A DNA stretch of 64,000 nt from Candidatus Parcubacteria bacterium (GCA_039796615.1 JBDKJL010000038.1:78033-142032), one strand, 5' to 3'; shown: positions 57,966-63,288, counted from the first letter of the stretch. Numbers and translations are program-made. The notes: generated from the letters alone by a model not told the origin.

Positions 57966-58092
57966 CGCGATCGTTGCGGCGGGGTCTCGGGGGCGATCGG
58001 CGGGGTAGCCTTTTTTCGGATCTCGGCTAGCGCCTTCGACCGAAAAAAGGTACCACCGCAACGATCGCGAGACATAACGGGGAGTTACATCT
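57966..58092. repeat. atp-operon palindromic element, copy 1 (atpD-atpC spacer)
   Basis: Core 57989..58068 is GGGGGCGATCGGCGGGGTAGCCTTTTTTCGGATCTCGGCTAGCGCCTTCGACCGAAAAAAGGTACCACCGCAACGATCGC. The tail is TAACGGGGAGTTACATCT. An extra outer inverted repeat lies at 57966..57983 and 58054..58071. Confidence 0.85.
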
Positions 58093-59463
58093 TTACGTGG
58101 TCACCTCATCGATTCCTCCCTTCATATAGAACGCCTGTTCCGGCTTATCATCATGTTTCCCTGCCAAAATTTCCTCAAACCCACGCAACGTATCATCCAG
58201 CGAAACATATTTGCCCGGGTTGCCCGTGAACACTTCGGCCACGTGGAACGGTTGCGACAGGAATTTTTGAATCTTACGCGCGCGCGCCACCGTTTGCTTA
58301 TCTTCGTCCGACAGTTCTTCCATCCCCAAAATCGCGATGATGTCTTGCAAATCTTTATACCGCTGCAACACTTTTTGCACCCCACGCGCCACGGTGTAGT
58401 GCCGCTCGCCCACGATTTTTGGGTCCAAAATTGTGGAGTTGGAATCGAGTGGATCCACGGCCGGATAAATTCCGAGCTCGGCGAGGGAGCGCGCCAGCAC
58501 CACGGTGGAGTCTAAGTGCGCAAAGGTGGTGGCGGGCGCTGGGTCTGTAAGGTCGTCCGCCGGCACATACACCGCTTGCACGGAGGTGATGGAGCCCTTG
58601 TTTGTGGAGGTGATCCGTTCCTGCAACGCGCCCATTTCCGTAGCGAGCGTTGGCTGATACCCCACGGCACTCGGAATGCGTCCGAGCAAGGCAGACACTT
58701 CAGATCCCGCTTGCGTAAAGCGGAAAATGTTGTCCACGAACAACAACACGTCCTGATTTTCTTCATCACGGAAATATTCCGCCATGGTGAGGCCGGAGAG
58801 CGCCACGCGTGCGCGAGCCCCCGGCGGTTCGTTCATCTGGCCGAATACCAGGGTGGTTTTGTCGATCACGCCACTTTCTTTCATTTCTTTCCAAAGGGCG
58901 TTGCCCTCACGCGTGCGTTCCCCCACGCCCGCGAACACCGAGAACCCCCCGTGTTCCGTGGCGATGTTATGGATGAGTTCCATCACGATCACTGTTTTTC
59001 CCACGCCGGCACCGCCAAACAGCCCCACTTTTCCGCCTTTCAAAAACGGACAGATGAGATCTACCACTTTGATCCCCGTTTCCAACACCTCCGATTTTGT
59101 GGCCTGTTCCGCAAAAGTGGGCGCGGCGCGGTGAATCGGGAGACGTTTTTTTACGGTTACTTCTGCGCCGCCATCAATCACGTCACCGGTAACATTGAAC
59201 ATGCGGCCAAGCGTTTCGCGGCCAACGGGCACGCTAATCGGTGCGCCGGTGTCGGCAACCTCCATGCCACGCGTGAGCCCATCCGTGGTGTCCATCGCGA
59301 TGGTGCGCACGGTGCCGCCGCCCACGTGCTGCTCCACTTCGAGCACCAACGTGGTGCCGTCTGCGCGCGTGATGTGCAGGGCGTTGTAGATGGCCGGGGG
59401 GTTTCCGGGGAAGGAAACGTCGACAACGGGACCGATGATCTTGGTGATTGTTCCTTTGGTCAT
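58093..59463 (-). CDS. atpD: F1 ATP synthase subunit beta
   Basis: This 456-aa ORF has the Walker A GGAGVGKT and DELSEED-like MEELSDEDK. Confidence 0.97.
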
Positions 59464-59472
59464 ATAATGGGG

Positions 59473-60366
59473 TTAAGCGATATCTAATGCGGCTTTGCCA
59501 GCGGAGATTTCGGAAATCTCGCGGGTGATGCCGGCCTGACGGGCTTGGTTATAGGTGAAGGTGAGATCATCGAGCATCGAAGAAGCGTTGTCGGTGGCCG
59601 AACGCATGGCCATCATGCGAGCTGCGTGCTCGCTAGCGGACGATTCGAGCAGCGCCTGGTAAATGCGCGTTTCGATCACGCGCGGCAGGAGCTGATTGAG
59701 CACCACATCCGGCGATGGCTCAAACACATCATGATGATGGCCGTGCGATCCGCCAAGCGTATCGGTGAGGCCGGTTGCGACGATCGGGAGGAGTTGTTCC
59801 ACGATGGGCGTTTGTACGAGCGCACTTTGATAGTCGGTATACGCGATAAACAATCGATCGCAGTGCCCTTGCGTAAATTGTTGCACCGCGAATTTCCCTA
59901 CGGGCATCGCCGCTTGATACGACGGAGCGTTTGAAATGGCATCAAACGACGCCACGATCTCTGCGCCCGCGCGGCGCACGGCGTGCTGGGCGCGACGACC
60001 CACGGCCACCACGCTTAACGACTCCCCTGCACGCTCGCGCAAAAAGGCCAGTGTTTTTTTGAGCACTTGCGCATTAAACCCTCCGCACAACCCACGATCA
60101 CTCGCAGCCACGAGCACGAGCGTGCGCGGCTTGGCGGGCATTTTTTCGCCACGGCCGAGCAAAAAGGCGTGCATTTCGGGATCGGTGTACCGCAACATGC
60201 GATCAACGAGCTCCGTGGCCGTGCGCGCATAGGCACGGCTGTTGAGCGTGAGCTGCACGCTTTTACGCATCTTGCTGGCCGCCACCATTTCCATGGCTTT
60301 GGTGATCTTCCGGGTGTTACCCACGGAGCGGATGCGGCGTTTAATGAGTTTAGGGGAGATGGCCAT
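59473..60366 (-). CDS. atpG: F1 ATP synthase subunit gamma
   Basis: This 297-aa ORF has IKRRIRSVGNTRKITKAMEMVAASKMRK at the N-terminus and ITREISEI at the C-terminus. Confidence 0.95.
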   Translation of the reverse strand: MAISPKLIKRRIRSVGNTRKITKAMEMVAASKMRKSVQLTLNSRAYARTATELVDRMLRYTDPEMHAFLLGRGEKMPAKPRTLVLVAASDRGLCGGFNAQVLKKTLAFLRERAGESLSVVAVGRRAQHAVRRAGAEIVASFDAISNAPSYQAAMPVGKFAVQQFTQGHCDRLFIAYTDYQSALVQTPIVEQLLPIVATGLTDTLGGSHGHHHDVFEPSPDVVLNQLLPRVIETRIYQALLESSASEHAARMMAMRSATDNASSMLDDLTFTYNQARQAGITREISEISAGKAALDIA

Positions 60367-60385
60367 ATGGAGAAAAACTGTCTGG

Positions 60386-60492
60386 CTCGGGGGCGATCGG
60401 CGGGGTGACCTTTTCGTGGCTCTCGGCTATCGCCTTCGCCCACGAAAAGGCACCTCCGCAACGATCGCGAGAAGTAACGGGGCGTTACATCT
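60386..60492. repeat. atp-operon palindromic element, copy 2 (atpA-atpG spacer)
   Basis: Core 60389..60468 is nearly identical to copy 1, with the inner stem CCTTTTCGTGG/CCACGAAAAGG. The tail GTAACGGGGCGTTACATCT overlaps the last codons and the stop of atpA. Confidence 0.85.
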
Positions 60493-62008: not shown

Positions 62009-62526
62009 AGGGTAAGTGATTGTTCCAAGCGTCGGATCCGTCCGTGGCGTGTGGCGTCGAACACCCAGTCTCCCGCCTGCACGCGGAGCCCGGCGATCAC
62101 CGTGGGATCCACGCGCGACTCGAGCCAGATGTCTTGTTTAAGCAGGGTAGAAAGGGCGGCCGTGATGCGTTGGAGAAAGGGGGCGGGCAAGGGAATCGCA
62201 CTGGTAACCACGGCATGTTTTTTATGGGAGAGCACCGCCGCCTCTTCGCGGAGCAGCGCCCCGAGCGCCGGGAGCGTGCGCAGTCGGCGATCTTTGGCCA
62301 GGAGTAAAAAAAGATTATACGTCTGCTCCGGTTGATTCGGCGCGGCGAGCGCAAGCGCCTTTCGCCGCGTGTCGCTTGGCATGCTTGGGTCGGCCAAAAA
62401 ACCGCGCAACCCCGGCACCTGCATCACCGCCTGCGCGCACATATCAAACGCCGCAACGGCCGCGCGCGGATCGCTCGAGGCTTGGAGATACGCTTGCGCG
62501 TAGGGGCGAAGGGATAAGCGAGACAT
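62005..62526 (-). CDS. atpH: F1 ATP synthase subunit delta (OSCP)
   Basis: This is a 173-aa ORF. The call rests on its position between atpF and atpA, its size and its C-terminal (I/V)DP(T/S)(V/L)I(A/G)GL motif. Confidence 0.85.
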
Positions 62527-62538
62527 GGGAGAAAAATA

Positions 62539-63093
62539 TTAAACCGTCGCCGTTTCCAATTCTTTCACCGCTCGTTCGATCTCTCGTAGATGCGCGGCCT
62601 CATCGAGTTCACCAGACGTAACCTTTTTCGTGGCTGCAAGCACAAGCCCGGCCACTTCGCGCCGCACGGCCTCTTTGGCCTGCGTGCGCTCGGTGCTGAT
62701 TTTTTCCTTGGCGTCTTGCACTTGCTGGTCGATCTCTTCGGCGGCCTTGTCTACACGCGCCTTGCGTTCTGCGTCTCCGGCGGTGCGCGCTTCGTCCATG
62801 GTTTTATGCGCGGCCGCTTTGGCGTTTGCAAGGAGCGAGGCTTCGGTGGTTTTGGCGCTCGCTAGCCGCGTATCGGCCTCTGCGGCGTTCGCCACGCCTT
62901 CCTCGATTTTTTTGCGCCGCGCTTCGAGCGTTTTTGTGAGCGGCTTGAACACAAAAAAGTGCAGCACCGCGAGCACGATGGCCACGTTTACCAACTGTGC
63001 CACAAACAGCGGCGCGTTGATGCCAAGCGTTCCGAGAACGCCGGTATCTTCTGCGACCTCGGTGGAGTGGGTTGGTTCAAGGGATTCAGTCAT
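62539..63093 (-). CDS. atpF: Fo ATP synthase subunit b
   Basis: The start is trimmed to MTESLEP... It has one TM helix (FVAQLVNVAIVLAVLHFFVFKPL) followed by a long charged helix. The ORF track extension reads through repeat copy 3. Confidence 0.85.
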   Translation of the reverse strand: MTESLEPTHSTEVAEDTGVLGTLGINAPLFVAQLVNVAIVLAVLHFFVFKPLTKTLEARRKKIEEGVANAAEADTRLASAKTTEASLLANAKAAAHKTMDEARTAGDAERKARVDKAAEEIDQQVQDAKEKISTERTQAKEAVRREVAGLVLAATKKVTSGELDEAAHLREIERAVKELETATV

Positions 63094-63144
63094 ATCAGGT
63101 TCGTTGATAGGGGCCTTATGCGATGGGAGCCTTATGAAGCACGC

Positions 63145-63288
63145 AGATGTAGCGCCCCGACCGTGTGTCTCAAGGGCGATCGGCGGGGTGTCCTTTTCGC
63201 GGCTCTCGGCTATCGCCTTCGCCCGCGAAAAGGCACCACCGCAACGATCGCTTGCCAACCAAAACGCAACATCTCGCCCTTGAGACAC
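63145..63288. repeat. atp-operon palindromic element, copy 3 (atpE-atpF spacer), tail module inverted
   Basis: Core 63174..63251 has the inner stem CCTTTTCGCGG/CCGCGAAAAGG. An outer 15-bp inverted repeat lies at 63165..63179 and 63274..63288. The tail motif appears as its reverse complement, AGATGTAGCGCCCC (63145..63158), on the opposite side of the core. Confidence 0.8.

Follow-up and report, generated by a model that had tools for sequence, protein, structure and literature searches.

A dispersed palindromic repeat, probably of the MITE/REP type, in and outside the atp operon of a Parcubacteria genome

The 64,000-nucleotide (nt) stretch of DNA analysed here (the window; JBDKJL010000038.1, positions 78033-142032, of assembly GCA_039796615.1, a Candidatus Parcubacteria bacterium) carries three copies of an imperfect palindrome in its operon for the F-type ATP synthase (atp), and further copies were found elsewhere in the same metagenome-assembled genome (MAG). 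[quoted passage not shown] Identical cores at unrelated loci, copies in both orientations, copies inside genes and local clustering all argue for spread as DNA. A first-pass annotation of the window had proposed a device that tunes the stoichiometry of the ATP synthase. The present analysis corrects this over-specific reading and adds a palindrome family, probably mobile, that was previously undescribed in a CPR genome. CPR genomes are usually regarded as streamlined and poor in repeats, and a literature search found no paper on palindromic repeats in genomes of CPR or Patescibacteria.

Copies and structure of the element

Within the window, the element lies in the spacers atpD-atpC (D-C, copy 1), atpA-atpG (A-G, copy 2) and atpE-atpF (E-F, copy 3) and nowhere else, as the first-pass annotation had stated (Table 1). 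A 20-nt loop motif gave 3 matches at no more than 3 mismatches, where 0.01 are expected by chance, the 16-nt left arm has exactly three perfect matches, and an nhmmer profile made from the copies returned no additional copy in the 64 kb. An independent assembly of the same organism by the Joint Genome Institute (contig L001) is 99.99% identical over 8.3 kb and has the same three copies, which are therefore not an assembly artefact.

The element had also been described as confined to the atp operon. This turned out to be an artefact of the window, because the same MAG holds at least four more copies, which makes at least seven copies at seven loci on two contigs. The fourth copy (L001, 708-783) sits in the tatD-HAD hydrolase spacer, 3.2 kb past the window's end; it differs from copy 1 by 2 mismatches in 93 nt and has the opposite orientation relative to transcription. 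Three further copies lie on contig L020, one in frame in priA (4904-4979), one in frame in a GT2/Wzy_C gene (9213-9288) and one between two glycosyltransferase genes (GT4-GT2). Copy 3 and the priA copy have identical cores, as do copy 1 and the copy in the GT2/Wzy_C gene.

Contig L020 was reached by a protein search with concatenated translations of the element's open frames, in which PriA (P0001) was the sole match; the recall of this search was poor, since neither the GT2/Wzy_C protein nor the extended HAD protein came up. The contig comes from the same metagenome sample as L001 and from the same NCBI MAG, 'Candidatus Parcubacteria bacterium', and the accessions MEN9557650.1 (PriA) and MEN9558510.1 (AtpG, locus tag RL141_879) tie it to the MAG of the window. 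Its tetranucleotide correlation with the window is 0.91 (0.93 for L001, which is the same genome), and the element cores that are identical between the contigs link the two as well.

All five intergenic copies lie between co-directional genes and start 0-56 nt past the upstream stop codon, which for the three hairpins in the operon is that of atpD, atpA or atpE. Relative to transcription, four copies have the reverse form and three the forward form, without bias. The copies are clustered, with four of them inside 8.5 kb and none in the window's other 55.7 kb, and the three on L020 inside 6.1 kb. When the 58 open reading frames (ORFs) of a greedy ORF call are taken as junctions, the chance of four junctions falling within eleven consecutive ones is 0.014. 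Because the non-atp contig clusters likewise, clustering is a property of the family, for example through local duplication or hopping, and not of the atp operon.

Two copies are translated as parts of proteins. The one in priA encodes SDRCGGAFSRAKAIAESREKDTPPIA, 26 amino acids (aa) between the 3'-DNA-binding domain and the helicase core of PriA, and falls in a variable linker that in an alignment is 16-20 aa shorter in the three closest PriA homologues. The GT2/Wzy_C copy encodes AIGGVAFFRISASAFDRKKVPPQRS, 25 aa between the two domains, and the ORF reads through it without a stop. It stands in the other orientation and is read in a different frame, and the two peptides are unrelated.

All seven cores align over 76 columns (75 nt in one copy), from GCGATCG to CGATCGC, with a mean identity of 93%; including flanks, the element measures about 95-145 nt. 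The arms, GCGATCG(TT)GCGG.GGTG... and ...CACCCCGCCGATCGC, form 26 pairs, to which a helix of 3 pairs in the loop is added (29 pairs), and a long form adds GTCTCG/CGAGAC to the arms; such extended forms are up to about 120 nt long. Three irregularities of the hairpin are conserved: one bulge is TT, another T/A, and the third has a single nucleotide. The inner stem distinguishes subtype A (TTTTCG(C/T)GG; copies 2 and 3 and the priA copy) from subtype B (TTTTTTCGG; copy 1 and the copies at tatD-HAD, in the GT2/Wzy_C gene and at GT4-GT2). The consensus that had been drawn from the three window copies fits copies 2 and 3, whereas copy 1 belongs to the second subtype and deviates from it at 3 positions of the loop. 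The four copies on the contig of the window have in common TCTC before the core, CCCCGAGAC after it (mRNA sense) and a longer leader, and the L020 copies are without those shared flanks.

Copies 2 and 3 differ at 4 positions, which are two single-base bulges and one pair altered on both sides. Copy 1 has its forward form, GCGATCGGCGGGG...CCGCAACGATCGC, on the plus strand, and the minus-strand atp mRNA has the reverse form. Its partial extra arm belongs to an inverted repeat (57959-57982 with 58053-58076, 88% complementary) and is an alternative partner with which the right arm can pair perfectly over 14 bp; the minimum-energy fold of the RNA uses that pairing. To judge from this arrangement, copy 1 is a composite, nested element that resembles the bacterial interspersed mosaic elements (BIMEs). 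The flank between copy 1 and atpD is common to copy 2 and, inverted, to copy 3, and holds a small hairpin, GTAAC-N5-GTTAT. In copy 2 the flank includes the stop codon of atpA, and the AtpA C-terminal end ...M* is found in the window, in the related genome L025 and in the outgroup L028. Copy 3 is lengthened by a 5' extension (AGATGTTGCGTTTTGGTTGGCAA in mRNA sense) and by an inverted copy of the AGATGTAGCGCCCCG flank at 63142-63159.

As RNA, all three window copies form much more stable folds than shuffled sequence does, on either strand (-53 to -80 kcal/mol, z -3.3 to -7.8; -79.9 kcal/mol for extended copy 3), in agreement with the stable hairpins that the first-pass annotation had supposed. 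The copies also fold well as DNA, with both strands equally good (-28 and -27 kcal/mol on the two strands for the core of copy 1). In all copies 29/29 pairs are Watson-Crick. Four pairs vary between copies, always with both partners exchanged together, and G-U pairs are absent. Because of this, the constraint is strand-symmetric, which fits a DNA hairpin or an orientation-independent element better than one transcribed RNA. A distant relative of the element was found upstream of prfB in a second Parcubacteria MAG (L011); it retains the outer stem with the TT/AA bulge and has an unrelated inner stem and loop, so that the outer stem with its bulge looks like a recognised module.

No match to the element was obtained with Rfam 15, whose families include the ATPC motif known from the atp operons of cyanobacteria, at gathering thresholds over the whole window, and at E <= 10 over 57400-64000 only two chance-level matches appeared, both away from the elements. 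A scan of 57400-64000 for terminator and promoter consensus sequences found no site at any of the three copies. No T-run, as an intrinsic terminator would have, follows within 10 nt 3' of any of the hairpins, and the partial termination of transcription that had been considered in the first reading is therefore not indicated. The pattern GATCGGCGGGGT-N40-70-CCGCAACGATC was scanned over 185,579 species-representative genomes, the window's own MAG not being among them, and gave 16 matches. Fifteen look like chance in high-GC genomes (six of these share an 83-nt span, and the one inspected, L002, has no hairpin), and one is the true distant relative in L011. A scan of metagenome contigs led back to the L011 contig and to one other contig identical with it, and to no more, a scan of viral contigs gave zero matches, and blastn against phages and plasmids gave no match. 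Among other identities considered, an attC-like site was rejected, as the atp genes are not integron cassettes, and a link to cyanobacterial HIP1 (GCGATCGC) was set aside, the terminal heptamer being the sole shared feature.

The atp operon in the window and in relatives

The operon is complete in the window, on the minus strand, and consists of atpB (partial), atpE, atpF, atpH, atpA, atpG, atpD and atpC. The junctions H-A, G-D and F-H had been described as tight or overlapping and free of the element, and this is borne out by distances of -4, 9 and 12 nt. The atpB-atpE spacer of 110 nt is element-free too, so not all loose junctions are occupied. The false N-terminal extensions that had been ascribed to the element are likewise real, since the atpC ORF runs through copy 1 (177 instead of 139 aa) and the atpF ORF through copy 3 (275 instead of 184 aa).

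Searches with AtpG and AtpC yielded a close subclade (AtpC of 139 aa, 77-86% identical) and more distant Parcubacteria. In the distant genomes L028, L029 and L031, the A-G spacer has 2, 2 and 10 nt and the D-C spacer 2, 1 and 43 nt, and no hairpin was found at either junction; the long A-G and D-C spacers are therefore subclade-specific insertions. In these outgroups A-G and D-C are as tight as H-A, G-D and F-H. The subunit ratios of the ATP synthase would thus be reached elsewhere without hairpin spacers, so that a stoichiometry device appears neither ancient nor required. The E-F spacers of the distant genomes measure 54-83 nt and contain a native perfect 22-bp hairpin in L031 and a 16-bp hairpin in L028.

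Within the subclade, L025 and L036 carry hairpin elements at A-G and D-C with a related leader (TACTCCAAAGCGATCGC) and different stems, the stem in L025 being perfect (15/15). L021 and L033 have a perfect 22-bp hairpin (22/22) at A-G and no element at E-F (30 nt) or D-C (1 nt). At D-C, L032 carries an AT-rich hairpin, and in L039 this spacer is at least 99 nt long. Sequences at the same junction are so unlike between lineages that a degree of turnover or re-insertion must have taken place. The idea of a conserved device failed on these operons, as presence and absence vary among close relatives and the outgroups are element-free at A-G and D-C.

Hairpins or expanded spacers are found at 8 of 10 high-to-low junctions, that is, where the gene of a subunit needed in larger amount precedes one needed less (A-G 3/3, D-C 4/5, E-F 1/2), and at 0 of 8 junctions H-A, G-D and F-H. 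These counts cover the observable junctions of the window genome and four related lineages. The observations lack phylogenetic independence, and if just three events are taken as independent, such a placement has a chance of 1/35.

Contig L025 stops inside a hairpin element after atpD (3819-3876), L036, which stems from the same sequencing project, has its first nucleotides within the second half of such an element (1-60), and L039 starts 99 nt upstream of atpC (1-99) and does not reach atpD. Such repeats may fragment metagenome assemblies, besides misleading gene callers: the element explains the false N-terminal extensions, possibly also false gene fusions, and may explain the contig breaks in relatives.

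From the comparison of sequences, the conserved non-coding feature of the operon is the atpB-atpE spacer and not the repeat. Upstream of the c-subunit gene (63530-63639, minus-strand sense), sequence and predicted structure are conserved across the window genome, L021, L028, L029 and L031. The spacer forms two hairpins, and the motifs CATTCYTA and GACGACGTTAAA are conserved in it; 11 of its 26 predicted pairs stay paired via two-sided changes, and Rfam gives no match for it. A recognisable Shine-Dalgarno sequence is absent from all atp genes examined (57947-63529 in the window, and those of L021, L028, L029 and L031), and the atp starts in these Parcubacteria are preceded by C/A-rich sequence, for example ACC(T)ATG. 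In contrast, the HAD gene beside the fourth copy starts with GTG, and GGAGG lies 5 nt upstream of this start. Shine-Dalgarno differences between atp genes are uninformative, since no lineage's atp genes have such a sequence.

Explanations for the element and its placement

If the element is a selfish repeat, its hairpin and bulges would be the recognition structure for a trans-acting enzyme, none of which was found in the window. Its spread would probably be local, by duplication or hopping, and the hairpin would be kept up by the needs of the enzyme or by arm-to-arm correction. A hairpin of ~29 bp between formerly coupled cistrons would probably abolish the translational coupling seen in relatives, and once transcribed it may also be a barrier to 3' exonucleases or a site for RNase III, which would leave upstream expression above downstream expression; precedents are the malE-malF REP and other protective structures (PMC5927463) and the Correia and ERIC elements (PMC10969869). 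Purifying selection would spare such insertions only where less of the downstream subunit is required, as from c to b, from alpha to gamma and from beta to epsilon. With a polar effect that is harmless only at high-to-low junctions, the placement after c, alpha and beta would be explained without adaptation, and we infer that the effect on expression arises as a by-product, or was co-opted recently at most, and is neither dedicated to stoichiometry nor conserved as a device for it. Of the tuning device first proposed, the direction of the effect thus stays plausible and the positional idea survives in weakened form, with polar hairpins tolerated or possibly co-opted at those junctions only, whereas an atp-specific device is unsupported in view of the dispersed copies and the outgroups.

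Several observations weigh against a selfish repeat. Pfam identified no transposase or RAYT-like (REP-associated tyrosine transposase) gene among the 38 window ORFs, a search confined to the 64 kb, in which the ORFs proved to be ordinary CPR housekeeping and cell-surface genes. No direct repeat that could be a target-site duplication is shared by the flanks of the seven copies, the ends GCGATCG being palindromic themselves and no empty site being available to compare. The copy number is a lower bound, since the MAG is seen in part only, and L020 came up through carrying the element and hence gives no estimate of density. The preference for high-to-low junctions across five lineages is also what an adaptive device would predict, and perfect stems with wholly different sequences between lineages could reflect selection for an RNA hairpin and not arm correction on the DNA.

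The last two points belong to a rather unlikely alternative, in which mobile hairpins were recruited in the subclade as a stoichiometry device that replaces coupling and raises mRNA or translation of c, alpha and beta over b, gamma and epsilon. The junction counts speak for it, given that the outgroup A-G and D-C junctions are equally tight, and so do lineages that differ in hairpin sequence and yet have perfect stems at the same junction (L021, L025). Copy 2, moreover, departs from its nearest relatives only in bulges and one compensated pair, and protective 3' structures and REPs set operon stoichiometry elsewhere (PMC5927463). However, an element with an identical core stands in frame in priA, others lie in unrelated spacers and in both orientations, L021 and L033 do without it at E-F and D-C as the outgroups do at A-G and D-C, and the junctions lack independence. 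A further step, and a slightly more doubtful one, would be that the perfect-stem hairpins of the subclade repeatedly replaced coupling where subunit demand drops and never where it rises, and were co-opted as a modular, fast-evolving setting of ratios in a genome whose atp operon has hardly any Shine-Dalgarno signals. A DNA-level protein-binding or structural site with a chromosomal role, comparable to BIMEs and REPs with gyrase or IHF and without any role in mRNA or mobility, would account for the outer stem and bulges conserved even in L011 and for the strand symmetry without G-U pairs. It is nevertheless improbable, as in-frame copies, identical cores, local clustering and differences in presence fit mobility better and no binding protein can be named. 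Hardly credible is an atp-specific structured cis-regulatory RNA or small RNA gene, such as a riboswitch, an attenuator or an intrinsic terminator: the predicted structures are strong and the positions intercistronic, but Rfam stays silent even at the permissive threshold, the hairpins lack a T-run, copies occur outside atp, in coding sequence and in both orientations, and the outgroup atp operons are free of the element. With the selfish repeat as the preferred explanation, the insertions limited to high-to-low atp junctions in several lineages would be a small natural experiment on the tolerance of polar intercistronic hairpins.

Other palindromes were seen in the same genome. Two 172-nt elements of a second family, at 5825-5996 and 9772-9943, have 64/64 complementary arms and a 44-nt loop. 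Their loops and loop-proximal arm halves are similar, and the distal ~19 nt are unrelated between the copies and perfectly complementary within each, a pattern that suggests copying from one arm to the other in the DNA. Both elements lie between genes, the first with its right arm ending 2 nt away from the upstream stop codon. At a contig end of the same MAG (L020, 12108-12223) lies a palindrome with perfect arms of at least 36 bp (36/36) and a 44-nt loop, TGAGGACTGT...GAGCGCAGCGAG...CCGCAG. This loop resembles that of the atpA-atpG hairpin in L021 (7888-7961), the stems being unrelated but perfect. Perfection over 64 bp is hard to ascribe to selection on RNA and therefore points to a DNA-level process that keeps the arms complementary; with such a process, compensatory change becomes weaker evidence for RNA function. 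A possibility linked to the fast-evolving setting of ratios is that a mechanism of this kind maintains complementarity during sequence turnover, as the 64/64 and 36/36 arms and the conserved loops on unrelated stems would suggest.

Further features of the window lie apart from the element and the operon (Table 1). At 38376-38437, in a 527-nt gap between opposite-strand ORFs (35983-37992 minus, 38520-39578 plus), an inverted repeat pairs perfectly over 27 bp around a loop of 8 nt (AAAAACCCCTGTGTTTTCCCATTTTCA...). Runs of A and T flank it on either side, as in a bidirectional terminator. On the minus strand, 33110-33520 holds a group I intron (RF00028, 85.9 bits, 33155-33432) in a tRNA gene, of which the 3' half with T-arm and CCA end lies at ~33148-33110; ARAGORN calls no tRNA in the window. 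Upstream of the intron, an HNH-type motif (CANCHREVH) suggests a homing endonuclease. A single ORF of 3363 aa (14084-24175, minus) lies between genes with a PEP-utilising mobile domain (12581-14080 and 24215-25690). The region 30001-32000 has a G+C content of 0.43 against ~0.53 for the window, includes a RhuM-family gene (30691-31734) and is possibly acquired DNA.

Table 1. Genes of the atp operon and parts of the three element copies in the window
Feature	Position	Strand	Remark
atpC (epsilon, 139 aa)	57528-57947	-	true start 57945-57947
Copy 1, partial extra arm (CGCGATCGTTGCGGCGGGG) and conserved flank GTCTCGGGG	57959-57992		
Copy 1	57984-58076		atpD-atpC spacer
Copy 1 core	57993-58068		subtype B, inner stem TTTTTTCGG/CCGAAAAAA
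Copy 1, conserved flank	58069-58092		mRNA sense AGATGTAACTCCCCGTTATGTCTC; begins directly past the atpD stop codon
atpD (beta)	58093-59463	-	
atpG (gamma)	59473-60366	-	
Copy 2	60384-60476		atpA-atpG spacer
Copy 2 core	60393-60468		subtype A variant (CGTGG/CCACG)
Copy 2, conserved flank	60469-60487		mRNA sense ...CAG ATG TAA CGCCCCGTTACTTCTC; atpA stop codon inside
atpA (alpha)	60485-62008	-	
atpH (delta)	62005-62526	-	4-nt overlap with atpA
atpF (b, 184 aa)	62539-63093	-	
Extended copy 3	63142-63288		outer perfect 15-bp stem 63165-63179 with 63274-63288
Copy 3	63167-63259		atpE-atpF spacer
Copy 3 core	63176-63251		subtype A
atpE (c subunit, 73 aa)	63308-63529	-	

Comparison with known repeats

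With its short, non-autonomous, non-coding dispersed copies and terminal inverted repeats, the element shows these features of a MITE. MITEs that act on mRNA include the Correia elements of Neisseria, also called NEMIS (Neisseria miniature insertion sequences), and the enterobacterial repetitive intergenic consensus (ERIC) sequences; RNase III cleavage of the arms has been described for Correia and altered decay of the upstream message for ERIC (PMC10969869). The Parcubacteria element is similar to both in size, in inverted-repeat arms that would give long transcript hairpins and in its insertion between co-transcribed genes. It differs from them in having no sequence similarity, no TA or other target-site duplication that could be detected and no known parent insertion sequence.

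REPs are palindromes of 20-40 nt that bear an unpaired tag, GTAG or CGTC, at one of their ends, and intragenic ones are reported to be frequent in replication and repair genes (PMC3733652). Shared with REPs and BIMEs are imperfect palindromes just 3' of operon-internal stop codons that are co-transcribed, the composite make-up of copy 1 with an extra inverted arm, and a copy in priA, which recalls the REPs in replication and repair genes. As with the REP between malE and malF, such a hairpin can serve as a 3'-exonuclease barrier that favours the upstream cistron. Unlike REPs, the core has 76 nt and ends in GCGATCG on both sides without a tag, GTAG being found only in the flank of copy 3 (GTAA in copies 1 and 2), and the screen of the 64 kb turned up no RAYT.

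Protective 3' structures and REPs, among them the malE-malF REP, shape the stoichiometry of operons (PMC5927463). The hairpins reported by Dar and Sorek in 2018 (PMC5927463) resemble those in the atp operon in that a stable hairpin separates an upstream from a downstream transcript segment, the upstream one being the more abundant in the reported operons, and several can occur per operon; here the likeness is one of position, with a stable predicted hairpin directly 3' of the presumed more abundant cistron. The protective structures of E. coli are mostly unique sequences in coding regions and are conserved among related species (PMC5927463), whereas the Parcubacteria hairpins are intergenic copies of a repeat that is probably mobile, and vary among close relatives.

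Rickettsia palindromic elements (RPEs), as the work of Ogata et al. (2000 and 2002) is summarised in PMC10969869, lie in intergenic DNA and in frame in unrelated housekeeping genes. Measured against that summary, the two have in common that short palindromes are dispersed in a small, reduced genome and that in-frame copies add a peptide in a tolerant region, as in the priA and GT2/Wzy_C genes. They differ in that the core has 76 nt against roughly 100-150, that no sequence relationship has been established and that there is no conserved peptide: the two in-frame copies give unrelated peptides, and sequence likeness to the Rickettsia elements was not directly compared. The host, moreover, is a free-living or episymbiotic CPR bacterium and not Rickettsia, and so far the intragenic cases are only two. 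These two would nonetheless place RPE-like in-frame insertion of palindromes outside Rickettsia. By its sequence features, the element is thus neither a member of the REP family nor to be filed as an RPE; it is MITE/REP-like, and in its in-frame copies RPE-like.

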